Part shown: one piece after another, positions 1,285-18,636 of the stretch | Position numbering within the stretch: the stretch's first letter is position 1 | Layout of the letters: every line of letters starts with the position of its first letter | Translations under genes and position numbers: made by a program | IMG/VR virus record: IMGVR_UViG_2547132278_000016 | Reading direction: 5' to 3' (one strand) | DNA: 18,636 bases | From: a virus | Lineage: Duplodnaviria; Heunggongvirae; Uroviricota; Caudoviricetes | Notes under the pieces: model-generated | What the model was told of the DNA's origin: nothing | Databases searched by the model: none | Seen by the model: the letters and a program-made list of their open reading frames with translations, nothing else

Positions 1285-1319
1285 AGGTTGCTCCGGGCTA
1301 TGAAATAGAAAAATGAATC

Positions 1320-1425
1320 CGTTGAAGCCTGCTTTTTTATACTAAGTTGGCATTATAAAAAAGCATTGCTTATCAATTTGTTGCAACGAACAGGTCACTA
1401 TCAGTCAAAATAAAATCATTATTTG
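1320..1425. other. attL: attL: lambda att core GCTTTTTTATACTAA (1331-1345) joined to the P' arm of attP
   Basis: Exact 15-bp lambda core at 1331-1345 followed by GTTGGCATTATAAAAAAGCATTGCTTATCAATTTGTTGCAACGAACAGGTCACTATCAGTCAAAATAAAATCATTATTTG, recognised as the lambda attP P' arm. Confidence 0.8.
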
Positions 1426-2489: not shown

Positions 2490-2685
2490 TTCTGATCCTC
2501 TTCAAAAGGCTACCTGTTACTGGTCGATTTAAGTCAACCTTTACCGCTGATTCGTGGAACAGATATTCTCTTCCATCCTTAACCGGAGGAGGGAATATCC
2601 TGCATTCGCGCACCCATCGACGAACTGTTTCAAGGCTTCTTGGGCGTCGCTGGCGAGCGTTCCACTCCTGAAGTGTCAAGTACAT
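2467..2685 (-). CDS. xis: Excisionase
   Basis: 72-aa ORF MYLTLQEWNARQRRPRSLETVRRWVRE… matching lambda Xis; overlaps the int start as in lambda. Confidence 0.9.
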   Translation of the reverse strand: MYLTLQEWNARQRRPRSLETVRRWVRECRIFPPPVKDGREYLFHESAVKVDLNRPVTGSLLKRIRNGKKAKS

Positions 2686-2724
2686 CGCAAAGTCTCCGCA
2701 ATTACACGCAAGAAAAAACCGCCA

Positions 2725-2892
2725 TCAGGCGGCTTGGTGTTCTTTCAGTTCTTCAATTCGAATATTGGTTACGTCTGCATGTGCTATCTGCGCCCACAGC
2801 ATCCAGTGGTCATAGCAGTCGCTGATGTTCTCGGCTTCGATAACTCTGTTGAATGGTTCTCCATTCCATTCACCTGTGACTCGGAAGTGCAT
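2725..2892 (-). CDS. Small hypothetical protein (55 aa) downstream of xis-side accessory region
   Basis: Hand translation of the - strand: MHFRVTGEWNGEPFNRVIEAENISDCYDHWMLWAQIAHADVTNIRIEELKEHQAA; below the 60-aa ORF-track cutoff; position corresponds to the small ORF after xis in lambda. Confidence 0.5.
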   Translation of the reverse strand: MHFRVTGEWNGEPFNRVIEAENISDCYDHWMLWAQIAHADVTNIRIEELKEHQAA

Positions 2893-2929
2893 TTATCATC
2901 TCCATAAAACAAAACCCGCCGTAGCGAGT

Positions 2930-2961
2930 TCAGATAAAAGAAATCCTCGTCAGTGCGAGGA
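2930..2961 (-). terminator. Putative intrinsic terminator (weak)
   Basis: Stem TCCTCG/CGAGGA (2944-2949 / 2956-2961) with a T-rich tract following on the - strand. Confidence 0.3.
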
Positions 2962-3134
2962 TGCTGTTCATTGCTGCTATACACTTTTTTGCTCTCAACG
3001 TAAGCGGTAGCCCATTCTGTTGGGTTGGTGCAGTTGCTTTTAGGAAATGCTATTTACCCCTTAAATGTCGGCTGAAAGAGCTAAAATCCATGCAAAAAAT
3101 TTACGCAATTTTGTGTATTATTGTGCAGTAAGTA

Positions 3135-3737
3135 ATGAGCTATTTTCTGCGCAAAAAATGGATGGTAAATTTGTCCGGGTCAGGAAAAATTTTATGGGCG
3201 CTAAACATGAAAAAAGATTCGTATCCTTATTTGATTTGCATGACAGTTTCAGGGCTGATCTTTATTTTCCTTTTCTTCTGGTGGCGGGCAGATATCTACA
3301 GGGTCACGTTTCTTAATCAGAGTATATCCCACTATTACATTCTGTTTAGCATGGGAATAGCTTTTCTGTTATCTCTGTTTTGGGTTAAGAAGGGGATAGT
3401 AAAACAAAGCGGCTGGAAGAGTCTGTCAGCATACCTTAAGGTTTATGCAGGGATGTGCATATTTGCTGGATTTTTTCTGATTATACCCCTTACGACACTA
3501 ACTTATTTTTTGCCTGGAGAGACATCGTCTTATGTTGCACCGTATCGGTATACTTCCGGTAGTTCAAAAAGTTGTTCTGGAGCTGAGGTGGATGACCCCG
3601 ATCTACATGAGAATATTCGCATTTGCTATCCGTATGGCAATTATGAGTACGATAATATTATCTATGTTGAAAAGAAAATTAATATATTAGGTGCGGTAGT
3701 GACATATGCACAGACCGCGCGTGATGATACTGAATGA
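3135..3737 (+). CDS. Hypothetical integral membrane protein (about 3 TM helices plus a ~70-aa Cys-containing C-terminal domain); accessory gene
   Basis: 200-aa ORF on the strand opposite the flanking leftward operon; hydrophobic segments LICMTVSGLIFIFLFFWW, YILFSMGIAFLLSLFWV, VYAGMCIFAGFFLIIPLTTL; AT-rich context; start uncertain (in-frame ATGs at 3135, 3162, 3207; MKKDSYPY… at 3207 looks like a typical membrane-protein N-terminus). Confidence 0.6.
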   Translation: MSYFLRKKWMVNLSGSGKILWALNMKKDSYPYLICMTVSGLIFIFLFFWWRADIYRVTFLNQSISHYYILFSMGIAFLLSLFWVKKGIVKQSGWKSLSAYLKVYAGMCIFAGFFLIIPLTTLTYFLPGETSSYVAPYRYTSGSSKSCSGAEVDDPDLHENIRICYPYGNYEYDNIIYVEKKINILGAVVTYAQTARDDTE

Positions 3738-3771
3738 TATAGTATATAGCGGGCAAGTTTTAGTTAATTTA

Positions 3772-3800
3772 TCGAGGTAATATAATTTACCTCGACTCGT
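3772..3800 (+). terminator. Putative terminator after the membrane-protein gene
   Basis: 9-bp inverted repeat TCGAGGTAA / TTACCTCGA (3772-3780 / 3787-3795) followed by a moderately T-rich stretch. Confidence 0.35.
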
Positions 3801-3947
3801 TTGTTCTGGTATTAATATTTCGCTTTACGACCGATTTTTATCTGATGATATCATGCGGTTTTCATATACTGACTTACTGTCTTTTCTCCGTTAGCGATTT
3901 TCTCCTGCTCAGCGATGATTTTATCTTTGGCTTCTAGTTAATTTCGC

Positions 3948-4169
3948 TCACTTCGAACCTCTCTGTTTACTGATAAGCTCCAGATCTTGCTGGCAACTGG
4001 CACAAGTCCGACAACCCTGAACGGCCAGTCGTCTTCGTTCATCTATCGGATCGCCACACTCACAACAATGAGTGGCAGATATAGCCTGGTGGTTCAGGCG
4101 GCGCATTTTTATTGCTGTGTTGCGCTGTAATTCTTCAATTTCTGATGCTGAATCAATTATGTCTGCCAT
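3948..4169 (-). CDS. TraR/DksA-family C4 zinc-finger protein (lambda Orf73-like)
   Basis: 73-aa ORF with CxxC…CxxC (CCECGDPIDERRRLAVQGCRTCASC), typical of TraR-like proteins. Confidence 0.75.
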   Translation of the reverse strand: MADIIDSASEIEELQRNTAIKMRRLNHQAISATHCCECGDPIDERRRLAVQGCRTCASCQQDLELISKQRGSK

Positions 4170-4220
4170 CTTTCATTAATCCCTGAATTGTTGGTTAATA
4201 CGCTTGAGGGTGAATGCGAA

Positions 4221-4246
4221 TAATAAAAAAGGAGCCTGTAGCTCCC
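4221..4246 (-). terminator. Putative weak intrinsic terminator in the leftward operon
   Basis: Stem GGAGC/GCTCC (4231-4235 / 4241-4245) followed on the - strand by TTTTTT. Confidence 0.35.
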
Positions 4247-4267
4247 TGATGATTTTGCTTTTCATGT

Positions 4268-4483
4268 TCACCGTTCCTTAAAGACGCCGTTCAACATGCC
4301 GATCGCCAGGCTTAAATGAGTCGGTGTGAATCCCATCAGCGTTACCGTTTCGCGGTGCTTCTTTAGTACGCTACGGCAAATGTCATCGACGTTTTTATCC
4401 GGAAACTGCTGTCTGGCTTTTTTGATTTCAGAATTAGCCTGACGGGCAATGCTGCGAAGGGCGTTTTCTTGCTGAGGTGTCAT
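4268..4483 (-). CDS. Hypothetical phage protein (71 aa)
   Basis: ORF in the leftward operon; start taken at internal ATG 4483 (MTPQQENALRSIARQ…), which overlaps the stop of the upstream small ORF (ATGA). Confidence 0.55.
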   Translation of the reverse strand: MTPQQENALRSIARQANSEIKKARQQFPDKNVDDICRSVLKKHRETVTLMGFTPTHLSLAIGMLNGVFKER

Positions 4484-4563
4484 TGAACAAGCCCCATGTC
4501 GGCAAGCATAAGCACACAGAATATGAAGCCCGCTGCCAGAAAAATGCATTCAGTGGTTGTCAT
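4480..4563 (-). CDS. Putative 27-aa hydrophobic peptide, translationally coupled on both sides
   Basis: Hand translation MTTTECIFLAAGFIFCVLMLADMGLVQ; its ATG overlaps the stop of the upstream ORF (ATGA) and its stop overlaps the ATG of the downstream ORF (ATGA). Confidence 0.3.
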   Translation of the reverse strand: MTTTECIFLAAGFIFCVLMLADMGLVQ

Positions 4564-4751
4564 ACCTGGTCTCTCTCATCTGCTTCTGCTTTCGCCACCA
4601 TCATTTCCAGCTTTTGTGAAAGGGATGCGGCTAACGTATGAAATTCTTCGTCTGTTTCTACTGGTATTGGCACAAACCTGACTCCAATTTGAGCGAGGCT
4701 ATGTGCCATCTCGATACTCGTTCTTAACTCAACGGGAGATGCTTTGTGCAT
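4560..4751 (-). CDS. Small hypothetical protein (63 aa), lambda orf63-like by position and size
   Basis: 63-aa [29 protein letters not shown]… in the leftward operon between exo and xis. Confidence 0.55.
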   Translation of the reverse strand: MHKASPVELRTSIEMAHSLAQIGVRFVPIPVETDEEFHTLAASLSQKLEMMVAKAEADERDQV

Positions 4752-4912
4752 ACAGCTCCCCGTTTATTATTTATCTCCTCAGCCAGCCGCTGTGCTTTCA
4801 GGGGATTTCTGATAACAGAAAGGCCGGGAAATACCCAGCCTCGCTTTGTAACGGAGTAGACGAAAGTGATCGCACCTACCCGGATATTATCGTGAGGATG
4901 CTTCATCGCCAT
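4724..4912 (-). CDS. Small hypothetical protein (62 aa), lambda orf60a-like by position
   Basis: ORF starts 7 bp upstream of the exo stop and overlaps the next ORF; compact operon organisation. Confidence 0.5.
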
Positions 4913-5583
4913 TGCTCCCCAAATACAAAACCAATTTCAGCCAGTGCCTCGTCCATTTTTTCGATGAACTCCGGCACCATCTCGTCAAAACTCGCCATGT
5001 ACTTTTCATCCCGCTCAACCACGACATAATGCAGGCCTTCACGCTTCATACGCGGGTCATAGTTGGCAAAGTACCAGGCATCTTTTCGCGTCACCCACAT
5101 GCTGTACTGCACCTGGGCCATGTAAGCCGACTTTATGGCCTCGAAACCACCGAGCCGGAACTTCATGAAATCCCGGGAGGTAAACGGGCATTTCAGCTCA
5201 AGGCCATTGCCGTCACTGCATAAACCATCGGGAGAGCAGGCGGTACGCATACTTTCGTCGCGATAGATGATCGGGGATTCAGTAACATTCACGCCGGAAG
5301 TGAATTCAAACAGAGTTCTGGCGTCGTTCTCGTACTGTTTTCCCCATGCCAGCGCCTTAGCATTAACTTCCGGAGCCACACCGGTGCAAACCTCAGCCAG
5401 CAGGGTGTGGAAGTAGGACATTTTCATGTCAGGCCACTTTTTTCCGGAGCGGGGTTTTGCTATCACATTGTGAACTTCTGAAGCGGTGATGACGCCGAGC
5501 CGTAATTTGTGCCACGCATCATCCCCCTGTTCGACAGCTCTCACGTCGATTCCGGTACGCTGCAGGATAATGTCCGGTGTCAT
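4903..5583 (-). CDS. exo: Lambda exonuclease (Red alpha)
   Basis: 226-aa translation [40 protein letters not shown]… matches remembered lambda Exo; ATGA overlap with the bet stop. Confidence 0.95.
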
Positions 5584-6365
5584 GCAGCCACCTTCTGCTC
5601 AGTGGCTTTCTGTTTCAGGAATCCAAGAGCTTTCACTGCTTCGGCCTGTGTCAGTTCTGACGATGCGCGAATGTCGCGGCGAAATATCTGGGAACAGAGC
5701 GGCAATAAGTCGTCATCCCATGTTTTATCCAGGGCAATCAGCAGAGTGTTAATCTCCTGCATGGTTTCATCGTTAACCGGAGTGATGTCGCGTTCCGGCT
5801 GACGTTCTGCAGTGTATGCGGTATTTTCGACAATGCGCTCGGCTTCATCCTTGTCATAGATACCCGCAAATCCGAAGGCGAGACGGGCACACTGAATCAT
5901 GGCTTTATGCCGTAACATCCGTTTGGGATGCGACTGCCACGGTCCGGTGATTTCTCTGCCTTCGCGGGTTTTGAATGGTTCGCGGCGGCATTCATCCATC
6001 CACTCGGTAACGCAGATCGGATGATTGCGGTCCTTGCGGTAAATCCGGCATGTGCAGGATTCATTGTCCTGCTCAAAGTCCATGCCATCAAACTGCTGGT
6101 TTTCATTGATGATACGGGACCAGCCATCAACGCCCACCACCGGAACGATGCCGTTCTGCTTGTCAGGGAAGGCGTAAATTTCTTTCGTCCACGGATTAAG
6201 GCCGTACTGGTTGGCGACGATCAGCAATGCGATGAACTGCGCATCGCTGGCATCACCTTTAAATGCCGTCTGGCGAAGAGTGGTGATCAGTTCCTGTGGG
6301 TCGACAGAATCCATGCCGACGCGTTCAGCCAGCTTCCCAGCCAGCGTTGCGAGTGCTGTACTCAT
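5580..6365 (-). CDS. bet: Bet (Red beta) single-strand annealing protein
   Basis: 261-aa translation [37 protein letters not shown]… matches lambda Bet. Confidence 0.95.
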
Positions 6366-6370
6366 CCGTT

Positions 6371-6787
6371 TTATACCTCTGAATCAATATCAACCTGGTG
6401 GTGAGCAATGGTTTCAACCATGTACCGGATGTGTTCTGCCATGCGCTCCTGAAACTCAACATCGTCATCAAACGCACGGGTAATGGCTTTTTTGCTGGCC
6501 CCGTGGCGTTGTAAATGATCGATGCAGAGTGATTCAAACAGGTGCTGGGGCAGACCTTTTTCCATGTCGTCTGCCAGTTCTGCCTCTTTCTCTTCACGGG
6601 CGATCTGCTGGTAGTGACGCGTCCAGCTCTGAGCCTCAAGACGATCCTGAATGTAATAAGCGTTCATGGCTGAACTCCTGAAATAGCTGTGAAAATATCG
6701 CCCGCGAAATGCCGGGCTGATTAGGAAAACAGGAAAGGGGGTTAGTGAATGCTTTTGCTTGATCTCAGTTTCAGTATTAATATCCAT
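6371..6787 (-). CDS. gam: Gam, RecBCD inhibitor (138-aa long form; short form would start at 6667)
   Basis: Translation contains [98 protein letters not shown], matching lambda Gam. Confidence 0.9.
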
Positions 6788-6885
6788 TTTTTATAAGCGT
6801 CGACGGCCTCACGAAACATCTTTTCATCGCCAATAAAAGTGGCGATAGTGAATTTAGTCTGGATAGCCATAAGTGTTTGATCCAT
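6742..6885 (-). CDS. kil: Kil (host-killing / FtsZ-inhibiting small protein)
   Basis: 47-aa [50 protein letters not shown], the C-terminal part of the longer 89-aa track ORF; overlaps gam and cIII as in lambda. Confidence 0.8.
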
Positions 6886-7018
6886 TTTTTGGGACTCCTG
6901 GCTGATTAAGTATGTCGATAAGGCGTTTCCATCCGTCACGTAATTTACGGGTGATTCGTTCAAGTAAAGATTCGGAAGGGCAGCCAGCAACAGGCCACCC
7001 TGCAATGGCATATTGCAT
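6854..7018 (-). CDS. cIII: CIII (FtsH inhibitor stabilising CII)
   Basis: Hand translation of the - strand from ATG at 7018: [54 protein letters not shown] (54 aa); below the ORF-track cutoff. Confidence 0.85.
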   Translation of the reverse strand: MQYAIAGWPVAGCPSESLLERITRKLRDGWKRLIDILNQPGVPKNGSNTYGYPD

Positions 7019-7090
7019 GGTGTGCTCCTTATTTATACATAACGAAAAACGCCTCGAGTGAAGCGTTATTGGTATGCGGTAACGCCGCGC

Positions 7091-7459
7091 TCAGGCGGCT
7101 TTGATAGTCATATCATCTGAATCAAATATTCCTGATGTATCGATATCGGTAATTCTTATTCCTTCGCTACCATCCATTGGAGGCCATCCTTCCTGACCAT
7201 TTCCATCATTCCAGTCGAACTCACACACAACACCATATGCATTTAAGTCGCTTGAAATTGCTATAAGCAGAGCATGTTGCGCCAGCATGATTAATACAGC
7301 ATTTAATACAGAGCCGTGTTTATTGAGTCGGTATTCAGAGTCTGACCAGAAATTATTAATCTGGTGAAGTTTTTCCTCTGTCATTACGTCATGGTCGATT
7401 TCAATTTCTATTGATGCTTTCCAGTCGTAATCAATGATATATTTTTTGATGTTTGACAT
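7091..7459 (-). CDS. ea10: Ea10-like protein
   Basis: 122-aa ORF MSNIKKYIIDYDWKASIEIEIDHDVMTEEKLHQINNFW… matching remembered lambda Ea10. Confidence 0.8.
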   Translation of the reverse strand: MSNIKKYIIDYDWKASIEIEIDHDVMTEEKLHQINNFWSDSEYRLNKHGSVLNAVLIMLAQHALLIAISSDLNAYGVVCEFDWNDGNGQEGWPPMDGSEGIRITDIDTSGIFDSDDMTIKAA

Positions 7460-7477
7460 CTATTCATATCCTCACAG

Positions 7478-7505
7478 ATAAAAAATCGCCCTCACATTGG
7501 AGGGC
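7478..7505 (-). terminator. Intrinsic terminator in the leftward (pL) operon upstream of ea10
   Basis: Stem GCCCTC/GAGGGC (7488-7493 / 7500-7505) followed on the - strand by ATTTTTTAT. Confidence 0.45.
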
Positions 7506-7719
7506 AAAGAAGATTTCCAATAATCAGAACAAGTCGGCTCCTGTTTAGTTACGAGCGACATTGCTCAGTGTATTCACTCGTTGGAATGAATACACAGTGC
7601 AGTGTTTATTAGTATGCCTGTCTTTTAACCACATCAGGCTCGGTGGTTCTCGTGTACCCCTACAGCGAGAAATCGGATAAACTCTATTCACCCCTACAGA
7701 GAGCAAAAGAGAAACGCCG

Positions 7720-8301
7720 ATGAACAACTCATGGTGGCAGGAACTAATGCATTTTTTCCTGCAAGGAATGACACTTAAACAGTTGATTCATATGCTAATC
7801 ATCCTGATCATATTGATTATTGTTATGCCTGTAAGCGTAAAAGAATGGATAAACCTGCATAATCCAGAAATCCTTCCTCATTACTGGATGTATTACATCC
7901 TGTTGTTTTGCGTTAGCTATGTGCTTAACGGCGTTGTTAATTCCGCTTATCACGCTGTGACTGAAAGAATTGAGATATTCGCTGCTCAGAAGCGCAAATC
8001 TAAAGAAGAGAAATACGTGCAAGATTTGTTTGATTCGTTAACTCTTGGAGAAAGAGCGTATTTGGCATTCGCTGTAGCCGCTAATAACCAGCTAAAGACA
8101 GAAAAGGGAAGCCCTGAAGCAATCTCATTGCTCGAAAAAGGGCTTCTTATTCGGGTACCTTCTGCTACTGGATATCCTGAAATCGACCGTTTTGTTATCC
8201 CGGAACGCTATAGAAATGAGTGCTACATTAGGTTTGCTGGGAAGAAAGACAGTCTTATGGATGAACTTATCGCTCAGGATAAGCATGGCAAAAACAAGTA
8301 A
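7720..8301 (+). CDS. sieB: Superinfection exclusion protein B
   Basis: 193-aa membrane protein MNNSWWQELMHFFLQGMTLKQLIHMLIILIILIIVMPVSV… matching lambda SieB; converges on the N-like gene. Confidence 0.85.
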   Translation: MNNSWWQELMHFFLQGMTLKQLIHMLIILIILIIVMPVSVKEWINLHNPEILPHYWMYYILLFCVSYVLNGVVNSAYHAVTERIEIFAAQKRKSKEEKYVQDLFDSLTLGERAYLAFAVAANNQLKTEKGSPEAISLLEKGLLIRVPSATGYPEIDRFVIPERYRNECYIRFAGKKDSLMDELIAQDKHGKNK

Positions 8302-8317
8302 TTAGCAAATTAATTTA

Positions 8318-8590
8318 TCATCTCGCCGTCAGTTGTTTTGATTTCCGGTAGCCTGCCGCGTAAATGGCTACGTTTGGCAGGCAAATACTTCCACTGCATT
8401 CATCTGCCTTCTTGCAGCGAAGGCTTCCGAGTGATGCTGCTTTGTCTGCTCTGACGCAACCAGAGAGCTTTAGCGCAATTTTTCGCGCCAGTCGCTGTTC
8501 TTGCATTGCCTGCTCACGTTGAGCCTGTCTGCGTGCTCTGCGGCGATTTCTGGCGTTATTGTCAGCCAGATATGTAATGACTACTGCCAT
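8318..8590 (-). CDS. N-like transcription antiterminator (P22 gp24 type)
   Basis: 90-aa ORF with arginine-rich motif NARNRRRARRQAQRE near the N-terminus and a C-terminus (…LPNVAIYAAGYRKSKQLTAR) resembling P22 gp24; GGAGG 6 nt upstream of the ATG; placed downstream of pL/nutL. Confidence 0.65.
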   Translation of the reverse strand: MAVVITYLADNNARNRRRARRQAQREQAMQEQRLARKIALKLSGCVRADKAASLGSLRCKKADECSGSICLPNVAIYAAGYRKSKQLTAR

Positions 8591-8698
8591 GTTGACCTCC
8601 GATGATTAACTTTGGCGGTGACGCGCCGGGTGCTTATCTTCCGGTTGCCGTCGTGCAGCTGCACTTCACGTCACCCCAAAGCCAACTACTCTTTGGTT

Positions 8699-8738
8699 CC
8701 CGCATTTCGGCGGGACAATCCCATCAATGTTAAAGAGC
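8699..8738 (-). promoter_or_regulatory. nutL: nutL: boxA (GCTCTTTAACA) and boxB hairpin (CCCGCCGAAATGCGGG) in transcript sense
   Basis: BoxA-like sequence followed by a 5-bp-stem hairpin that is identical to the one downstream of cro. Confidence 0.6.
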
Positions 8739-8770
8739 CTGCCAATCTGTTCCGTTTGGCTACCAGCGTC

Positions 8771-8862
8771 CTGCCGATGACTTAAATTTAAGATTTCTTT
8801 AACTATTGGTCAAGAGTGTTTTTGAAGAAAACTTAAATTTTGTTGCGAAGCTTAAGTTTTGC
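8771..8862 (-). promoter_or_regulatory. OL operators and pL promoter (TTGACC-17 nt-TAAATT on the - strand, about 8775-8803)
   Basis: Palindromic CTTAAATTTAAG and ACTTAAA…CTTAAGT operator-like repeats resembling those at OR; good -35/-10 match reading leftward toward nutL and N. Confidence 0.55.
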
Positions 8863-8880
8863 TTTGATTTTTAAAGGAAA

Positions 8881-8902
8881 GAAAAAAAGGGGCGAATGCC
8901 CC
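8881..8902 (-). terminator. Intrinsic terminator immediately after the repressor gene
   Basis: GGGGCATTCGCCCC hairpin followed by TTTTTTTC on the - strand, directly after the c2 stop codon. Confidence 0.7.
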
Positions 8903-9553
8903 TTATGGAAGGTTTGCTATTTTTGCATCGACAACTACACCGATGATTTTGCAGTTCCCGTTGATCTCAATCATCGGATATTGTGGGTTAAGTGGTTTTA
9001 GAAACCTTCTGCCAGCATCAATAACTAACTTCTTGAAAGTTGCCTCGTTTTCTCCTTCGAGCTTTGCCACTACCAGCTTCCCATTACGAGGTTCTACTTC
9101 AGGATCGACTAGTATTATCATCCCTTCCGGGATGCTAAGACCGGCTGGAGCCGTCATCGAATCACCCTTTACGTCCAGCCAAAACGAATCTTCTGAACAA
9201 TCTACGGTTGTATCGTACCAGTTATCTATTGCACGCTTATGATATGGCTCTACAGCTTCCATCCAACATCCTGCGCTTACCCAACTAATTAGAGGATACG
9301 AACCTCTTGGATCATGCCTGCTGTGATAGGCAATGTTTGAAAGACTATCTTCTCCTTTCAACAAGTAATCAGGGGAGCACTGTAAAGCCTTGGCTAAAGC
9401 CAATAGGTTTTCGCCATTGGGCTCAGTTTCAGAACGCTCCCATTGGGAAATAGCAACATTAGACACGCCAACCATCTTGCCGAGGGCAGCCTGCCTAATC
9501 TTAAGTTCTTTTCTGCGAGCGCGAATACGCTCACCCATCAGTTGTGTATTCAT
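8903..9553 (-). CDS. c2: Prophage repressor, P22 C2 type (LexA-like HTH plus S24 peptidase domain)
   Basis: 216-aa translation MNTQLMGERIRARRKELKIRQAALGKMVGVSNVAISQWERSETEPNGENLLALAKALQCSPDYLLKG… near-identical to remembered P22 C2. Confidence 0.95.
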   Translation of the reverse strand: MNTQLMGERIRARRKELKIRQAALGKMVGVSNVAISQWERSETEPNGENLLALAKALQCSPDYLLKGEDSLSNIAYHSRHDPRGSYPLISWVSAGCWMEAVEPYHKRAIDNWYDTTVDCSEDSFWLDVKGDSMTAPAGLSIPEGMIILVDPEVEPRNGKLVVAKLEGENEATFKKLVIDAGRRFLKPLNPQYPMIEINGNCKIIGVVVDAKIANLP

Positions 9554-9554
9554 A

Positions 9555-9630
9555 GTTAAGACATCTTAAATAAACTTGACTTAAGATTCCTTTGATAGAT
9601 AATTTAAGTGTTCTTTAATTTCGGGGCGAG
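9555..9630. promoter_or_regulatory. OR operator region with divergent pR and pRM promoters
   Basis: Three operator-like palindromic elements (AGTTAAGACATCTTAAAT, ACTTGACTTAAGAT, TAATTTAAGTGTTCTTTAATT) between divergent c2 and cro; TTGACT and GATAAT hexamers reading toward cro. Confidence 0.6.
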
Positions 9631-9633
9631 TCT

Positions 9634-9819
9634 ATGTACAAGAAAGATGTTATCGACCACTTCGGAACCCAGCGTGCGGTAGCTAAAGCGTTAGGCATTA
9701 GCGATGCAGCAGTCTCTCAGTGGAAGGAAGTCATCCCAGAGAAAGACGCCTATCGACTGGAAGTCGTTACAGCTGGCGCCCTGAAGTATCAAGAAAGTGC
9801 TTATCGCAAAGCGGCATAA
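9634..9819 (+). CDS. cro: Cro, P22 type
   Basis: 61-aa translation MYKKDVIDHFGTQRAVAKALGISDAAVSQWKEVIPEKDAYRLEVVTAGALKYQESAYRKAA matches remembered P22 Cro. Confidence 0.9.
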   Translation: MYKKDVIDHFGTQRAVAKALGISDAAVSQWKEVIPEKDAYRLEVVTAGALKYQESAYRKAA

Positions 9820-9824
9820 GCAAA

Positions 9825-9868
9825 TTGCTCTTTAACAGTCATGGTCCTTATTCCCGCCGAAATGCGGG
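9825..9868 (+). promoter_or_regulatory. nutR: nutR: boxA (TGCTCTTTAACA) and boxB hairpin CCCGCCGAAATGCGGG
   Basis: Same boxA/boxB pair as nutL, directly downstream of cro. Confidence 0.6.
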
Positions 9869-9927
9869 AATACAACGCGCATCAGTTGGTGCGTATAACT
9901 TCTTATTTGTTAAGGAAATACTTACAT

Positions 9928-10206
9928 ATGCAACTTACAAGTACTCGCAAGAAAGCGAATGCAATCACAAGCAACATCCTGAATCGAATTGCTGTACGTG
10001 GTCAGCGAAAGGTTGCTGATGCATTAGGGATTAATGAATCGCAAATTTCGCGATGGAAAGACAGCTTTATCCCAAAGATGGCCATGCTTCTGGCTGTGCT
10101 GGAGTGGGGTGTTGAAGACGAGGAATTAGCAAAGCTAGCAAAGAAAGTAGCCATGGTGCTGACAAAAGAAAAGCCTCAAGACTGCTGCAACAGTTTTGAG
10201 GCCTGA
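9928..10206 (+). CDS. c1: CII-like transcriptional activator (P22 C1 type)
   Basis: Start at ATG 9928 with AAGGA upstream (MQLTSTRKKANAITSNILNRIAVRGQRKVADALGINESQISRWK…); HTH and the LLAVLEWGV motif shared with lambda CII; the track ORF from 9841 is an upstream extension. Confidence 0.8.
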   Translation: MQLTSTRKKANAITSNILNRIAVRGQRKVADALGINESQISRWKDSFIPKMAMLLAVLEWGVEDEELAKLAKKVAMVLTKEKPQDCCNSFEA

Positions 10207-10240
10207 TGTAGAAAGACTGGATCAATCCACAGGAGTCATT

Positions 10241-11140
10241 ATGACAAATACAGCAAAAATACTCAACTTCGGCAGAGGTAACTTTGCCGGACAGGAGCGT
10301 AATGTGGCAGATCTCGATGATGGTTACGCCAGACTATCAAATATGCTGCTTGAGGCTTATTCAGGCGCAGATCTGACCAAGCGACAGTTTAAAGTGCTGC
10401 TTGCCATTCTGCGTAAAACCTATGGGTGGAATAAACCAATGGACAGAATCACCGATTCTCAACTTAGCGAGATTACAAAGTTACCTGTCAAACGGTGCAA
10501 TGAAGCCAAGTTAGAACTCGTCAGAATGAATATTATCAAGCAGCAAGGCGGCATGTTTGGACCAAATAAAAACATCTCAGAATGGTGTATCCCTCAAAAC
10601 GAGGGAAAATCCCCTAAAACGAGGGATAAAACATCCCTCAAATTGGGGGATTGCTATCCCTCAAAACAGGGGGACACAAAAGACACTATTACAAAAGAAA
10701 AAAGAAAAGATTATTCGTCCGAGAATTCTGGCGAATCCTCTGACCAGCCAGAAAACGATCTTTCTGTGGTTAAACCGGATGCTGCAATTCAGAGCGGCAG
10801 TAAGTGGGGAACAGCAGAAGACCTGACCGCCGCAGAGTGGATGTTTGACATGGTGAAGACCATCGCGCCATCAGCCAGAAAACCGAATTTTGCTGGGTGG
10901 GCTAACGATATCCGCCTGATGCGTGAACGTGACGGACGTAACCACCGCGATATGTGTGTGCTTTTCCGCTGGGCCTGCCAGGACAACTTCTGGTCCGGTA
11001 ACGTGCTGAGTCCGGCCAAACTCCGCGACAAGTGGACCCAGCTCGAAATCAACCGTAACAAGCAACAGGCTGGCGTGACAGCCGGAAAACCAAAACTCGA
11101 CCTGACAAACACTGACTGGATTTACGGGGTGGATCTATGA
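10241..11140 (+). CDS. O: Replication initiator O (lambda type)
   Basis: Translation from ATG 10241 (AGGAGT upstream) MTNTAKILNFGRGNFAGQERNVADLDDGYARLSNMLLEAY… matches lambda O; contains the ori iterons. Confidence 0.95.
   Translation: MTNTAKILNFGRGNFAGQERNVADLDDGYARLSNMLLEAYSGADLTKRQFKVLLAILRKTYGWNKPMDRITDSQLSEITKLPVKRCNEAKLELVRMNIIKQQGGMFGPNKNISEWCIPQNEGKSPKTRDKTSLKLGDCYPSKQGDTKDTITKEKRKDYSSENSGESSDQPENDLSVVKPDAAIQSGSKWGTAEDLTAAEWMFDMVKTIAPSARKPNFAGWANDIRLMRERDGRNHRDMCVLFRWACQDNFWSGNVLSPAKLRDKWTQLEINRNKQQAGVTAGKPKLDLTNTDWIYGVDL
10589..10720. repeat. ori: ori-lambda: four ~19-bp iterons (O-binding sites) followed by an AT-rich unwinding region
   Basis: Direct repeats ATCCCTCAAAACGAGGGAA / AATCCCCTAAAACGAGGGATAA / CATCCCTCAAATTGGGGGA / TATCCCTCAAAACAGGGGGA, then AAAGACACTATTACAAAAGAAAAAAGAAAAGATTATTCG. 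Confidence 0.85.
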
Positions 11141-11838
11141 AAAACATCGCCGCACAGATGGTTAACTTTGACCGTGAGCAGATGCGTCGGATCGCCAACA
11201 ACATGCCGGAACAGTACGACGAAAAGCCACAGGTACAGCAGGTAGCGCAGATCATCAACGGTGTGTTCAGCCAGTTACTGGCAACTTTCCCGGCGAGTCT
11301 GGCTAACCGTGACCAGAACGAACTGAACGAAATCCGCCGCCAGTGGGTTCTGGCTTTCCGGGAAAACGGGATCACCACAATGGAACAGGTTAACGCAGGA
11401 ATGCGCGTAGCCCGTCGGCAGAACCGACCATTCCTGCCATCACCCGGGCAGTTTGTTGCATGGTGCCGGGAAGAAGCATCCGTTATCGCCGGACTGCCAA
11501 ACGTCAGCGAGCTGGTTGATATGGTTTACGAGTATTGCCGGAAGCGAGGCCTGTATCCGGATGCGGAGTCTTATCCGTGGAAATCAAACGCGCACTACTG
11601 GCTGGTTACCAACCTGTATCAGAACATGCGGGCCAATGCGCTTACTGATGCGGAATTACGCCGTAAGGCCGCAGATGAGCTTGTCCATATGACTGCGAGA
11701 ATTAACCGTGGTGAGGCGATCCCTGAACCAGTAAAACAACTTCCTGTCATGGGCGGTAGACCTCTAAATCGTGCACAGGCTCTGGCGAAGATCGCAGAAA
11801 TTAAAGCTAAGTTCGGACTGAAAGGAGCAAGTGTATGA
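11137..11838 (+). CDS. P: Replication protein P (DnaB helicase loader)
   Basis: 233-aa translation MKNIAAQMVNFDREQMRRIANNMPEQYDEKPQVQQVAQIINGVF… matches lambda P; ATGA overlap with the O stop. Confidence 0.95.
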   Translation: MKNIAAQMVNFDREQMRRIANNMPEQYDEKPQVQQVAQIINGVFSQLLATFPASLANRDQNELNEIRRQWVLAFRENGITTMEQVNAGMRVARRQNRPFLPSPGQFVAWCREEASVIAGLPNVSELVDMVYEYCRKRGLYPDAESYPWKSNAHYWLVTNLYQNMRANALTDAELRRKAADELVHMTARINRGEAIPEPVKQLPVMGGRPLNRAQALAKIAEIKAKFGLKGASV

Positions 11839-12008
11839 TGGGCAAAGAGGCAATTATTCATTACCTGGGGACGCACAAGAGCTTCTGTGCGCCGGACGTT
11901 GCTGCGACAACAGGTGTGACATTAACCAGCATAAATCAGGCTGCGGCAAAAATGGCGCGGGCAGGAATCCTGGTCATTGATGGTAAGGTCTGGCGAACGT
12001 TTGTTTAA
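11835..12008 (+). CDS. ren: Ren-like protein, C-terminally truncated (57 aa)
   Basis: Hand translation MMGKEAIIHYLGTHKSFCAPDVAATTGVTLTSINQAAAKMARAGILVIDGKVWRTFV* resembles the N-terminal half of lambda Ren (~96 aa); similarity ends near 12000. Confidence 0.6.
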   Translation: MMGKEAIIHYLGTHKSFCAPDVAATTGVTLTSINQAAAKMARAGILVIDGKVWRTFV

Positions 12009-12154
12009 CGGTTAGCTACTCAGGATGATAGGGCGGGGCAAGTGAGTATGAAGCGGATTTTCAGGAATGCCATCAGAGTTTGGAAATAAAGTGGGTTTTC
12101 TAGTGGCAAGAGACTTGATAATATTTAGTTCTTTGAATCCAAGGAGATAGGGTT

Positions 12155-12650
12155 ATGAGAAAATTTATTTTAGCCTTTGTTATAAGTGCCTCGTTTACAG
12201 CAAATGCTGGTGTAGAGAAGTTAGGGCCGTGGATAACAAAGTCTGAGATAAATAAAATGACTGACCAGACTGACTTTGTGGCCCTTAATTTATCACCAGA
12301 TTCATATAACAAAGCAGGTACTGATCGTGCAACTTCACTGGTGTTGCGTTGTAGTGATAACAAAACAGATGCCTATTTATCATTCAATGATTATATGGGT
12401 TCGGACAACCCAAGAATTACAGTGCGGTTAGATGGGCGGAAAGCCGGTCAAGAGTGTTTGGGGAGGTGGGGAAGGCGGTGATTCTGCATTTGCTCCACAA
12501 CCAATACAATTTATAAAGACCTTGGCTAAGCATAAAAAAGCTATTTTTGGGTTTGAACCTTATGGATCAACTATGCAAGTAGTTGAGTTTGACTTGTCTG
12601 AGATTGATAAGGTTGTGGAAAAAATTTCACAGTCTTGCAATTGGAAATGA
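12155..12650 (+). pseudogene. Secreted/periplasmic hypothetical protein gene split by an apparent frameshift (ORFs 12155-12481 and 12432-12650)
   Basis: AAGGAGA RBS then ATG 12155; signal peptide MRKFILAFVISASFTANA; reading frame ends in a G-rich stretch (GGGGAGGTGGGGAAGGCGG) while an overlapping frame continues to 12650. Confidence 0.5.
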
Positions 12651-12667
12651 CAAAAAAATTTCATATG

Positions 12668-12695
12668 AACCCAGTTTGCGCTGGGTTTTTTATTT
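12668..12695 (+). terminator. Intrinsic terminator
   Basis: Stem AACCCAG/CTGGGTT (loop TTTGCG) followed by TTTTTTATTT, about 20 bp after the stop at 12650. Confidence 0.6.
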
Positions 12696-13279
12696 CAGTA
12701 GCCAATAATGCATTCAAAATCTCTTACTTGAGAAACGGCCTATTTGAGATTTCAGTCGTGGCAGGATGATCAGTTGATTCGAGTATTGACGCATTTGCGT
12801 TCGGAGCGATTACAGTAGATTGTAAATAATAATGAGAAACACATAGCCACCCCGTGGTATTGAAACCATATAATGTTGGATTTGAAAACAGATCTTTTCC
12901 CATGTATTAATAACTACATCCCCGCGAGTGATTCAAAAAGGAGGGCCCAATTTTGTCCGAGTTTTTGTATTCCCCCGCATGCCGCTGCGGAGCACTACAT
13001 CTGAGTGTCTGACTAGGGGATAAAATTAGACTGGATAGTGAGAAGAAAGTGGCGCGCTAGGCTGTGCCGAGTGCTACCAGTACACCTTGGGGGTGTGCAG
13101 CTTTCGCCGAGACTGTAGTGGGTATCGGTTAATGCACGAAAAACCGAGAGGTCAGACAACCAATTTGCCGTAGGATTGTTTCCGGTGCGATACCGGTCTA
13201 CTAACTGAAAGCAATGCGAAAAAGCATAAACTCGGTCCTTCAGTCGCCCTACACACTATTTACTAAGAAGGGCTGAAGC

Positions 13280-13479
13280 ATGGATACAATTATTACATGG
13301 ATGGGAGATCGTCTGTTGGGGGGACACAAAAATCCGATCTGCGGCAGATGGCGATCACTGGATTAACTTCCGCGATTTGTTCAACAATTTTGTACACTGA
13401 AAAATTAAAACATGGTGAGCCTATTAACCCAAACGAAGAAGAAAAACTTTATAGGCTTTGGTATGAAGGAAACGCTTGA
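13280..13479 (+). CDS. Small hypothetical ORF with a G6 tract separating the RBS-linked start frame from the long frame (possible pseudogene or frameshift-prone gene)
   Basis: AGAAGGG then ATG at 13280 (MDTIITWMGDRLLGG…, stops after 28 codons); track ORF 13297-13479 is in another frame; the two frames meet at GGGGGG 13318-13323. Confidence 0.3.
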
Positions 13480-13685
13480 AAGAATAAAGCACAATTAAAA
13501 CCTTTGATTTGCGATAATCAACTTGCCATAATTAAGTAATCGGAGTCTGAACAACTCCGGTGACTTCTGCGCTAAACGGGGACGTTTATGCGCACATACA
13601 ATCCAAACTATCTTCTCCTTTCACAGATGCAGAAATGCACCTGCAATTCTTTGCATCTAGCGTTTGACCTCTGCGGAGGTGAAGC

Positions 13686-14141
13686 GTGAACCTCCCACAA
13701 GACGGCATCAAATTACATCGCGGCAACTTCACCGCTATCGGCCAGCAGATCCAGCCTTATCTGGAGGAAGGCAAATGCTTTCGCATGGTGCTTAAACCGT
13801 GGTGCGAGAGACGCAGTCTTTCCCAGAATGCACTCAGCCACATGTGGTACAGCGAAATCAGTGAATACCTCATCAGCAGGGGTAAAACGTTCGCCACTCC
13901 AGCTTGGGTAAAAGATGCTCTCAAACACACATATCTCGGTTATGAAACCAAAGACCTGGTTGATGTCGTAACCGGTGATATCACCACTATCCAGTCGTTA
14001 CGCCATACCTCCGATCTTGATACCGGAGAGATGTATGTCTTCCTGTGTAAGGTTGAAGCCTGGGCGATGAATATTGGTTGCCACCTGACTATTCCACAGA
14101 GCTGCGAGTTCCAGCTGCTGCGCGACAAGCAGGAGGCGTAA
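13686..14141 (+). CDS. ybcN: YbcN-like protein (151 aa), nin-region gene as in DLP12
   Basis: 151-aa ORF, GTG start with GGAGGTG upstream; sequence and size match remembered E. coli YbcN. Confidence 0.8.
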
Positions 14142-14311
14142 TGGCTACACCGCTTATTCGTGTCATGAACGGACACATCTACAGAGTACCAAATCGTCGT
14201 AAGCGTAAACCTGAGCTGAAGCCATCCGAAATACCAACACTGCTCGGATATACCGCCAGCCTGGTTGATAAAAAATGGTTGCGACTGGCAGCAAGGAGGA
14301 GTCATGGCTGA
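14141..14311 (+). CDS. ninE: NinE-like protein (56 aa)
   Basis: [65 protein letters not shown]; start overlaps the ybcN stop (TAATG). Confidence 0.8.
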   Translation: MATPLIRVMNGHIYRVPNRRKRKPELKPSEIPTLLGYTASLVDKKWLRLAARRSHG

Positions 14312-14594
14312 TTTGAGAAAAGCAGCGCGTGGTCGGGAATGCCAGGTAAGAATCCCTGGCGTATGTAATGGCAACCCTGAAACGTCTGTACTGGCACATA
14401 TCCGGCTGACTGGATTGTGCGGCACCGGTACGAAACCGCCAGACCTGATTGCCACCATTGCATGTTCTGCCTGCCACGACGAAATCGACCGCCGCACTCA
14501 TTTTGTCGATGCTGCATATGCAAAAGAATGCGCGCTGGAAGGTATGGCGAGAACACAGGTTATCTGGCTGAAAGAGGGGGTTATTAAGGCGTGA
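14304..14594 (+). CDS. ybcO: YbcO-like protein (DUF1364, Cys-rich putative nuclease)
   Basis: 96-aa ORF from ATG 14304 with AGGAGG upstream ([40 protein letters not shown]…CSACHDEID…). Confidence 0.8.
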
Positions 14595-14953
14595 ATACCT
14601 ACAGCATCACATTACCCTGGCCTCCGAGCAATAATCGCTATTACCGCCATAATCGCGGGCGCACGCACGTCAGCGCAGAGGGGCAGGCATACCGCGATAA
14701 CGTCGCCCGAATCATTAAAAACGCAATGCTGGATATCGGCCTGGCTATGCCTGTGAAAATCCGCATTGAGTGCCACATGCCGGATCGCCGTCGCCGTGAC
14801 CTGGATAATCTGCAAAAAGCCGCTTTTGACGCACTCACTAAAGCAGGTTTCTGGCTGGATGATGCTCAGGTCGTTGATTACCGCGTTGTGAAGATGCCTG
14901 TTACCAAAGGTGGGAGGCTGGAACTGACCATCACCGAAATGGGGAATGAATGA
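14591..14953 (+). CDS. rusA: RusA Holliday junction resolvase
   Basis: 120-aa translation [48 protein letters not shown]… matches remembered RusA; GTG start. Confidence 0.9.
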
Positions 14954-15090
14954 TGTTTGAGTTTTATATGGCAGAACGTCTTCGCCACCGCTGGGGGCGT
15001 CTGCGCTTATATCGTTTCCCCGGTTCTGTTTTGACCGATTACCGAATACTGAAGAATTACGCCAAAACCCTGACAGGAGCAGGAGTATGA
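14950..15090 (+). CDS. ylcG: YlcG-like small protein (46 aa)
   Basis: Hand translation [46 protein letters not shown]; overlaps the rusA stop; below the track cutoff. Confidence 0.5.
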
Positions 15091-15175
15091 AGTCAGAGAT
15101 AACAATCAACTAATACTGTTTTGTTGATTTTTGCTTGTAATTGGCGTTCTGGTCTGATTTTTGTGGAGTAAGTTG

Positions 15176-15559
15176 ATGCGTGATATTCAGATGGTTCTTG
15201 AGCGTTGGGGAGCGTGGGCGGCTAATAATCATGAAGATGTGACCTGGTCGTCCATTGCCGCCGGTTTTAAGGGATTAATTACTTCAAAAGTAAAATCTCG
15301 CCCGCAATGTTGTGACGATGACGCGATGATCATTTGCGGGTGCATGGCCCGTCTGAAAAAGAACAACAGCGATTTGCACGATTTATTAGTAGATTATTAT
15401 GTAGTCGGTATGACATTCATGTCACTGGCAGGTAAGCATTGCTGCTCTGATGGTTATATCGGGAAAAGGTTACAGAAGGCTGAGGGCATAATTGAAGGGA
15501 TGTTAATGGCATTAGATATCCGGTTAGAGATGGATATCGTTGTTAATAACTCTAATTAA
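15176..15559 (+). CDS. quuD: Late-gene antiterminator Q (DLP12 QuuD-like)
   Basis: 127 aa from ATG 15176 with GGAGTAAG upstream ([26 protein letters not shown]…); sits between the nin block and the lysis genes. Confidence 0.8.
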
Positions 15560-15591
15560 TACGCCAATTATTTACTAAAAGTTATTAAAAA

Positions 15592-15732
15592 TGGGGCGTT
15601 GAAACGCCCCCAAAAATAAAGGGTAATATATAACAGAAGGTTTGTATAGTTAGAAGCAAGGTTGTGCTTCTAAAGGAAGTGGCTTGAGGGAGCCACTTAT
15701 ATGTTGGGGAGGCAAAGCCTCCCACAACATAT
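15592..15732. terminator. Cluster of four stem-loops between convergent Q and porin genes (probable terminators)
   Basis: GGGGCGTT-gaa-AACGCCCC (15592-15610); AGAAGCA…TGCTTCT; GTGGCT-tgaggg-AGCCAC; ~15-bp stem ATATGTTGGGGAGGC-aaa-GCCTCCCACAACATAT (15699-15732). Confidence 0.4.
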
Positions 15733-15747
15733 CTTTTAGTAATCAAA

Positions 15748-16830
15748 TTAGAACTGGTAAACCATACCTACAGCAACGATATCATCGGTAGCAACGCCAG
15801 ATGCTTTCGTGAAATCGCTCTTATCAATCAGGTTGATTTTGTAGTCAACAAAAGTGGACATATTTTTGTTGAAGTAATAGGTTGCACCTACATCAACATA
15901 TTCAACCAGGTCCTGATCACCCCAAACACCCAAGTCTTTTCCTTTAGAATGCAGGTAAGCAACGGATGGACGCAGGCCGAAGTCGAACTGATATTGTGCA
16001 ACAGCTTCGAAGTTTTGTGCTTTGTTGGCAATATGGTTATTACCAAAAACAGTCATGTTCTGGGTTTCAGAATAGGTGGTAGCCAGATAGATGTTGTTCG
16101 CATCATATTTCAGACCAGCTGCCCATACTTCAGCATTTTGACCAGATGCATTCAGGCTGTTGTTACCGTAGATAACCTGATTATTAGTGCGGTCAGATTT
16201 AGCATAGGTTGCACCTACACCGAATCCTTCATACTCATAAGTAGTGGAGAAACCGAAACCATCACCATTAGCTTCAGTTACGTCAGTGCGGTCATTTTTA
16301 CCCTGATACTGAGCAGCAAAGTTCAGACCATCAACCAGACCAAAGAAGTCATTGTTACGATAAGTTGCAACACCTGTGGTGCGACCAGTCATGAATACAT
16401 CTGTTTGGGTCCAGGTATCGCCACCGAATTCTGGCAGAACGTCGGTCCATGCACCAATATCGTATGCTACACCGTAGTTACGGCCATAATCGATGGAGCC
16501 GTAGTCACCGAATTTCAGGCCAGCGAAGGCAAGACGGGTTTTATCTTTGGAGGAACCTTGAGATTCAGCGCGGTTGCCTTTGAATTCATATTCCCACTGA
16601 CCGAAACCAGTCAGTTGATCGTTGATTTGGGTTTCACCTTTGAAGCCAAGACGGGCATAAGTAGTATCACCATCATCTGCATCATTAGAGGAGAAGTAGT
16701 GCTTAGCATTAACTTTCCCGTACAGATCCAGCTTGTTACTGTCTTTATTATAAATTTCAGCTGCCTGAGCAGACATCGCCATCAGTACTGATGCAGCTAC
16801 AGCAGAAATTGCCACTGTTAATTTTTTCAT
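15748..16830 (-). CDS. nmpC: OmpC/OmpF-family general porin (NmpC / Lc type), apparently intact
   Basis: 360 aa from ATG 16830: signal peptide [23 protein letters not shown], porin-like beta-strand periodicity, C-terminal …VGMVYQF; matches remembered NmpC; the track ORF adds a 20-aa upstream extension. Confidence 0.9.
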
Positions 16831-17256
16831 CGTGAGCCCTTTTTTTGAACTATTATTAAAAAATGATGTCACTGCGCGATAAATATTCATCTAATCAATG
16901 TGATTATTTCAAGATGTAAGTTTTGGTTTCTCATTTGATTTGTGAAGTAGATCTCTATTTTTATCTGAACTTTTTCTATCGAATCCTATTCATGGCTCTT
17001 GGCTGAATAAAAATAAATCTATTAGCCAATTTATATTAATGGCTGTTATTTATAAGTGCTCTATAATTTGAAGATTCAATTTAAACCAGCTAAAAATAAC
17101 GCTGGAAATTATTTGTTGGTTATTTGTTGAGATTTGCTTATGTATTTGTAGTGGTGTTTTCAATACTCGGTAGCATTCTCGCAAATATCATTTAGTGGTT
17201 TACGTACGTAAAAAATTGGTTATGCTGTTAAGAGTGGTTACTTCGTCACACAGCTT

Positions 17257-17289
17257 AAACCCGCCGTCGAGCGGGTTTTTCCATTTTTT
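17257..17289 (+). terminator. Intrinsic terminator upstream of the lysis genes (tR'-like)
   Basis: AAACCCGC-cgtcga-GCGGGTTT followed by TTCCATTTTTT, ~130 bp before the holin start, with no + strand gene upstream. Confidence 0.6.
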
Positions 17290-17417
17290 GAGTCTCGATA
17301 TTAGCTGATAACCCAATACCTGAGTTATTCACTGACTCCGAGTCTGTTACGTTTCTGCTTTTTTGCGATACGTTGTATTCCCTCAATTTACACCCGCTTT
17401 GTCTGCGAGGTGGGGTT

Positions 17418-17633
17418 ATGAAATCCATGGATAAGTTAACAACGGGTGTCGCCTATGGCACCTCAGCAGGTAGTGCCGGTTACTGGTTTTTACAGCTGCT
17501 CGATAAAGTCACGCCCTCACAGTGGGCAGCAATAGGTGTGCTGGGTAGCCTGGTATTTGGCCTGCTGACGTACCTGACAAACCTTTATTTCAAGATTAAA
17601 GAAGATAAGCGCAAGGCTGCGAGAGGTGAATAA
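17418..17633 (+). CDS. S: Class II holin (phage 21 S-type pinholin) with dual-start motif
   Basis: [71 protein letters not shown]; Met1-Lys-Ser-Met4 gives 71- and 68-aa products; GAGGTGGGG upstream. Confidence 0.85.
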
Positions 17634-18126
17634 TGCCTCCATCATTACGAAAAGCCGTTGCTGCTGCTATTGGTGGCGGAGCAATTGCTATAGCATCAGT
17701 GTTAATTACTGGCCCAAGTGGTAACGATGGTCTGGAAGGTGTCAGCTACATACCATACAAAGATATTGTTGGTGTATGGACTGTATGTCACGGGCATACA
17801 GGAAAAGACATCATGCTCGGTAAAACGTATACCAAAGCAGAATGCAAAGCCCTCCTGAATAAAGACCTTGCCACGGTCGCCAGACAAATTAACCCGTACA
17901 TCAAAGTCGATATACCGGAAACAATGCGCGGCGCTCTTTACTCATTCGTTTACAACGTGGGTGCTGGCAATTTCAGAACATCGACGCTTCTTCGCAAAAT
18001 AAACCAGGGCGATATCAAAGGCGCATGTGATCAGCTACGTCGCTGGACATATGCTGGCGGTAAGCAATGGAAAGGTCTCATGACTCGTCGTGAGATTGAG
18101 CGTGAAATCTGTTTGTGGGGTCAGCA

Positions 18127-18130
<4 letters not shown>
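17633..18130 (+). CDS. R: SAR endolysin (T4-lysozyme-like muramidase with N-terminal signal-anchor-release domain)
   Basis: 165 aa; Gly/Ala-rich weak TM segment [20 protein letters not shown], then E…D…T-containing region ([22 protein letters not shown]); start overlaps the holin stop (TAATG). Confidence 0.85.

Positions 18131-18636
<506 letters not shown>

Follow-up and report, generated by a model that had tools for sequence, protein, structure and literature searches.

A single extra G at positions 12434-12436 splits one prophage gene into two overlapping open reading frames in the 18,636-nt stretch of DNA analysed here (the window, given in full 5' to 3'). The extra base is either an ordinary sequencing error or a private knockout mutation, and it is not a device of programmed frameshifting. 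A draft-assembly error, with the strain making the intact protein, has a somewhat better than even chance of being the explanation. All readings beyond such an error or a private null allele share, taken together, only a very small probability. A one-base frameshift in an already annotated accessory prophage gene is routine and carries little biological weight. In its normal form the locus is one 164-codon gene, a moron of a lambdoid prophage that has what is left of ren on one side and the nin region on the other and is equipped with a ribosome binding site and a terminator. The product belongs to the phage VasI/TagO-like family (phrog_1848, with a predicted IalB-like fold); it has a single domain and would be exported via Sec to the periplasm.

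Gene layout and position of the lesion

The gene is preceded by the Shine-Dalgarno sequence AAGGAGA (12141..12147, +), read directly in the sequence 7 nt ahead of the ATG at 12155, as the original prediction had described. The signal-peptide codons MRKFILAFVISASFTANA (12155..12208, +) follow. By inspection the N-terminus has a basic n-region (MRK), a hydrophobic core and T-A-N-A followed by G (an A-x-A motif), with a predicted cleavage after A-N-A, in agreement with the signal peptide claimed earlier. Among homologs this N-terminal stretch is the variable part of the alignment, although an A-x-A end occurs in most family members, and the signal-peptide region of the structure model is disordered (pLDDT below 50). 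Export of the restored protein via Sec and a periplasmic location are putative, judged from the N-terminus by eye and from the N-termini of homologs.

The two overlapping frames first reported are both present. ORF1 (12155..12481, +) comprises 108 codons and TGA. Its residues 1-94 are authentic and residues 95-108 (RKAGQECLGRWGRR) are read out of frame, up to the premature TGA at 12479-12481 (+). ORF2 (12432..12650, +), in the +1 frame, comprises 72 codons and TGA, and its residues 2-72 equal residues 94-164 of the intact protein. It lacks a signal peptide of its own and holds the family's most conserved half (FGFEPYGSTMQVVEFD). A TAG in the +1 frame (12429..12431, +) lies immediately 5' of the ORF2 ATG at 12432 and thereby limits the overlap of the two frames to 12432-12481. 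Directly 5' of this ATG no Shine-Dalgarno-like sequence was seen on reading by eye. Joined, ORF1 and ORF2 give 164 aa, and the exported protein of about 165 aa that had been predicted is correct in this respect. An intrinsic terminator (12667..12694, +), with a 9-bp stem, a 4-nt loop and a T-run, stands 17 nt after the stop codon, where a terminator following ORF2 had been noted. Immediately 5' of the gene no sigma-70-like promoter was found; transcription may start at a promoter of its own or come by read-through from pR. Rfam gave no match at the split locus.

The split was originally attributed to the G-rich tract GGGGAGGTGGGG, and in this the prediction was mistaken. Three records, each with one 495-nt CDS, were fetched and aligned with the window, and the only length difference is at 12434-12436 (+), where GG has become GGG by one inserted G in codons D93-G94-G95. 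The window has GATGGGCGG where the others have GATGGCGG, that is, GAT GGG CGG versus GAT GGC GG. From the extra G it is 24 nt downstream to the G-rich tract and 43 nt to the premature stop, which is found at the 3' edge of that tract. The tract itself (GGGGAGGTGGGGAAGGCGG, 12460..12478, +) is the same in the window as in intact genes; in the correct frame it encodes W-G-G-G-E-G-G, and it is a glycine-rich loop only. The deposited sequence does contain the split, as the window is identical to contig AELB01000007.1.

Source strain and its clonal relatives

The window is the last 18.6 kb of draft contig AELB01000007.1 of assembly GCA_000166555.2. AELB00000000 belongs to enterotoxigenic Escherichia coli (ETEC) strain TW10722, a Guinea-Bissau isolate that is now a human challenge strain. 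Over positions 1-18229 the window and ETEC strain 120899 (lineage 5) show 0 mismatches and 1 gap, the gap being the extra G. Seven ETEC genomes, 120899 and six more, match the whole window at 100.0%, and these are the remaining members of ETEC lineage 5 as given in PMC10761095. The intact counterpart in 120899 (WP_001224618.1, TagO, CXW56_RS03145) occupies the same position and has identical DNA over the gene and 18.2 kb of flanking prophage, from which the window differs by one G at 12434-12436 that yields 108 and 72 codons instead of one frame.

The chromosome of TW10722 has also been closed (GCF_018884385.1, CP035841.1; accession from PMC9320388), and the strain is cited under a second BioProject, PRJNA190209. 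Exact products were searched in a collection of about 15 billion proteins that includes the read-derived Logan set. The 108-aa product, recorded as the 'hypothetical protein' WP_001355774.1, comes from one contig only, AELB01000007.1, and no Logan source for it was found among these proteins. ORF2 is not on record as an exact protein anywhere in the collection, while the intact 164-aa protein has at least 1000 source contigs there. The TagO-like protein of the closed assembly is not listed in the supplements of the ETEC T6SS paper. For curation, WP_001355774.1 (108 aa) is to be regarded as a truncated form of the TagO-like protein. Since TW10722 is a human challenge strain, its closed assembly is preferable to the draft genome for users.

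The window ends where the contig ends, inside an IS100 element. The left end of IS100 (TGTCACGAACGG...) adjoins the Rz lysis gene at 18229|18230 and runs to 18636, truncating Rz. In at least six lineage-5 relatives the same IS100 lies 590 bp further on (19318|19319 in L004), and the 590 bp missing beside IS100 in the TW10722 contig may represent either an IS-adjacent deletion or a draft mis-join. The IS100 junction of the window was absent in one piece from all complete E. coli genome records searched, and the protein collection lacks the ORF that spans the junction 18229/18230, in its 40-aa as well as its 44-aa form.

Other copies of the gene

With a 751-base query the locus was matched in 83 of the 5,426 complete E. 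coli genomes and in one phage, IdasGreatGrand. The records listed for this query have a single gene annotated, except for one copy interrupted by IS1 and one partial match. A 65-base probe centred on the site matched 83/83 of these genomes at 98.5% (64 versus 65 bases), each with a one-base gap, and no exact match to the GGG probe was found among them. A pattern scan that allowed either form gave 11 metagenome and 41 viral contigs, and all 52 have GG. A complete 164-codon ORF is present in 49 of the 52; of the other three, two run off the end of the contig and the third, L017 with about 1x coverage, is interrupted by a stop codon further upstream in the frame. GGG at the site is therefore found in none of 136 other copies, which comprise 52 contigs of viral or metagenomic origin, the 83 E. 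coli genomes and the phage. When species-representative genomes were scanned, the site had no match. Other rare truncated alleles of the gene do exist in public data (P0002, P0008, P0013 and P0015), some of which are consistent with indels in GGGG runs.

The intact protein, its family and selection

RefSeq calls the restored 164-aa protein 'T6SS-associated protein TagO'. Its match to phrog_1848, a PHROG family of unassigned function, is full-length (residues 1-164 versus 1-166 of 166, 236 bits). A Klebsiella prophage homolog likewise matches this family end to end; the window copy differs by the frameshift alone. The match of the restored protein to PF11319 (VasI) is borderline, at 26.7 bits against a gathering score of 26.5 bits, and covers model positions 78-184. 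Neither fragment of the window scores on PF11319 by itself. The restored protein had no match in NCBIfam or PADLOC, and a search of its sequence profile against solved structures gave no match.

Homologs at 55-81% identity are all single ORFs of 164-167 aa and occur in Salmonella, Enterobacter, Citrobacter, Pantoea, Serratia and Klebsiella. The subfamily profile gathers 3,800 representatives at E <= 1e-3 and reaches VasI-type proteins of about 200 aa at E around 1e-20 to 1e-27. Profile searches place a shared domain of about 145 residues, with both sides of the lesion included, typically at the C-terminus of these ~200-aa proteins, and seven of the eight that were checked score 45-67 bits on PF11319. 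The PF11319 proteins (VC_A0118 / EvfG; TagO) have ~200-220 aa, whereas the phage proteins are shorter (164-167 aa), leave the N-terminal part of the model unmatched and, in the five genomic contexts looked at in detail, are found in prophages and not in T6SS clusters.

The predicted structure is a single domain across the junction, with strands and helices on both sides of residue 94. The closest fold to the model (mean pLDDT 77) is that of IalB of Bartonella henselae (PDB 3dtd), a resemblance that comes from a predicted model and is accompanied by a sequence identity of only 10%. The frame is lost at residue 94/95, in the middle of the domain, and the half that is lost is the family's most conserved part.

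Over 19 distinct intact alleles pN/pS is 0.11; the part ahead of the lesion gives 0.09 and the part after it 0.18. Purifying selection acts on both halves, and since pN/pS is low on both sides of the lesion the gene is selected as one reading frame. Across Enterobacterales the phrog_1848 family, with its predicted IalB-like fold, is conserved in prophages by purifying selection.

The 90%-identity cluster that holds the intact TagO-like protein is represented by a 'replication protein P' (233 aa) and mixes two unrelated neighbours. This looks like a clustering artefact, and it may explain why the E. coli protein is missing as its own homolog match.

Assembly error or private mutation

Of the three readings offered with the original prediction, a recent inactivating indel and a sequencing error both stand, while a programmed or slippage-dependent frameshift in the G-rich tract does not. 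Where the extra G lies, that no other copy has it and what it does to the gene are shown here; between the first two readings we infer an error, at odds slightly on its favourable side. Contig AELB01000007.1 would then read GGG where the true sequence is most likely GG, probably because base calling or consensus building for the draft misjudged the length of the homopolymer. In 18,229 bases the extra G is the lone difference from 120899, with 0 mismatches and 1 gap; it lengthens a homopolymer run by one base, no substitution accompanies it, and none of the 136 other copies has GGG. The source is a draft whole-genome shotgun assembly and the contig ends in an IS element. The 108-aa product has one contig as its only source, and none in Logan, despite the existence of PRJNA190209 and the closed CP035841.1, an argument conditional on other TW10722 assemblies being in the protein collection. 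Purifying selection on both halves of the intact gene points in the same direction. Against an error, GG to GGG concerns a very short run, where consensus errors are rarer than at long homopolymers; the TW10722 draft was presumably sequenced by 454. Prophage morons are known to decay, and this one has other rare truncated alleles. The same contig also has a second private difference, the 590 bp missing next to IS100.

There is a substantial chance, though one that falls somewhat short of even, that TW10722 does carry the extra G, as a private +1 insertion that arose very recently and knocks out the moron. The base is, after all, in the deposited sequence. Accessory prophage genes are dispensable, and the sporadic truncated alleles P0002, P0008, P0013 and P0015 exist; the adjoining ren is annotated as a pseudogene in relatives; and the IS100-adjacent loss of 590 bp that truncates Rz would be a second private change in this prophage. 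With a real insertion, an N-terminal fragment of 94 residues would be exported with a nonsense tail of 14 residues, and strands and helices of the model flank residue 94, with the most conserved half lost. Because this fragment is without the last β-strands and both helices of a single domain, it would be expected, from the model, to misfold and be degraded; ORF2, without a signal peptide and with no Shine-Dalgarno-like sequence seen, would add nothing. On the other side, the base has no independent sequence support, being in 0/136 other copies and giving a product known from one contig. A lone homopolymer indel without a substitution in 18 kb of draft sequence is a classic signature of error, and purifying selection maintains the gene wherever it is intact.

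The stronger claim, that the base is real and that TW10722 is naturally null for a VasI/TagO-like periplasmic protein carried by a phage, is improbable. Were it true, TW10722 and its seven intact lineage-5 relatives would be a ready-made isogenic comparison, provided that the phage paralogs act on the host T6SS or envelope; these paralogs might, for instance, tune the firing of the T6SS or protect lysogens. In such a mutant ribosomes could also slip spontaneously by +1 at GGG-CGG, at a low level, and make some wild-type protein, which would be a leak and not a programmed device.

Frameshifting, phase variation and separate genes

Programmed or leaky +1 ribosomal frameshifting that joins the frames, at GGG-CGG (12434-12439) or near the stop, is very unlikely. 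A +1 shift at the GGG codon does regenerate the wild-type protein with 0 mismatches, and the next in-frame codon is CGG, a rare arginine codon in E. coli. Further downstream a Shine-Dalgarno-like GGAGG (12462-12466) and rare AGG CGG precede the TGA, and the RNA of the region has a mildly stable structure (z = -2.2). This structure, however, is formed from sequence common to intact alleles. The GGAGG and other G-rich sequences are likewise glycine codons that are present in intact alleles and missing from distant homologs, so that slippage in the tract, as first proposed, fails on the location of the lesion, on the absence of these codons and on the lack of any two-frame homolog. Among E. coli alleles the tract varies synonymously (GGA/GGT, GGT/GGG); in its place Klebsiella homologs have TCT GGC GCA GAG and Serratia homologs AAT TCT TCA GAA. 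None of the 136 other copies has the extra G, and homologs down to 55% identity as well as the wider VasI family are single ORFs.

The locus resembles the +1 frameshift of prfB superficially, having GGAGG upstream of an in-frame TGA and a continuing frame at +1. The prfB stimulator needs a spacing of about 3 nt, whereas the GGAGG of the window ends 8 nt before the last sense codon. Also unlike prfB, the locus has no CUU-U-like slip codon at the stop, and its two-frame layout is not conserved. A shift near the stop would moreover replace up to 12 conserved residues. Within the overlap there is no in-phase slippery heptamer (X XXY YYZ) and no homopolymer longer than 4 nt. A programmed frameshift site was accordingly rejected, as the two-frame layout is unconserved and there is no conserved slippery motif with a correctly spaced stimulator.

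Phase variation, in which the G run would be a contingency tract that switches the gene by slipped-strand mispairing, is scarcely credible. The lesion does make a G run longer, and the gene product is putatively exported; surface and exported proteins are typical of phase-variable loci. Known contingency tracts, however, have about 7 nt or more, and this one has only 2-3 nt, with no length polymorphism in the 136 other copies. Phase variation is ruled out by this tract length together with the lack of polymorphism at the site.

Two genuinely separate genes, for a small secreted protein and a 72-aa cytoplasmic protein, have next to no probability: both ORFs start with ATG and ORF1 has a strong ribosome binding site, but the fragments match no family alone while the joined protein matches PF11319 and, end to end, phrog_1848, the model is a single domain across the junction and the exact ORF2 protein is not on record. 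Homologs with two separate genes at this position were looked for, as the original prediction had suggested, and every homolog is a single ORF; the two-gene arrangement is refuted by this comparison.

Genomic context and adjacent regions

The gene is a prophage moron. In E. coli and in phage IdasGreatGrand it has a lambdoid setting, flanked by the ren remnant on one side and the nin genes on the other, and the 120899 prophage that carries it is integrated beside ybhC. In Klebsiella, Pantoea and Serratia the gene is found in the tail modules of siphovirus-type prophages, just upstream of the tape-measure gene. No T6SS gene was found near the TagO-like gene in the contexts examined, five of them in detail. 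The RefSeq name 'T6SS-associated protein TagO' reflects homology only, and proteins that bear it in E. coli, Klebsiella and relatives are encoded by prophage morons in every context examined and are not parts of T6SS clusters. The function of TagO/VasI itself is listed as unknown in a 2026 review (PMC13584744).

In these Klebsiella, Pantoea and Serratia prophages (L006-L012) the phrog_1848 members, with the gene at about 8001-8504, occupy a second moron slot. The neighbours there are variable accessory genes: KilA-N, a YafO toxin, Ant/Arc, and HNH and GIY-YIG endonucleases.

Upstream of the split gene, a ren-like ORF of 57 aa (11835-12008, +) matches phrog_7054 end to end (57/57, 147 bits). 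RefSeq annotates the ren region in relatives as a pseudogene ('frameshifted; internal stop'), and IdasGreatGrand annotates a CDS. Rather than being a pseudogene, the 57-aa ORF may encode a genuine, short form of Ren.

Downstream, from the terminator to the small gene upstream of ybcN (~12700-13590), about 900 bp contain no ORF longer than 60 aa and gave no Rfam match at the gathering threshold. In 154 complete E. coli genomes this stretch is found almost entire; it could consist of decayed genes or be a regulatory or non-coding region. The only Rfam match of the window is the lambda cIII thermoregulator RNA (RF01804; 6973-7031, -; 88.5 bits, full length), which is expected in a lambdoid prophage. 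An OmpC-type porin gene (15748-16830, -) lies between the Q-like antiterminator gene (quuD) and the lysis genes, in the slot of the known nmpC/lc-type lambdoid moron.
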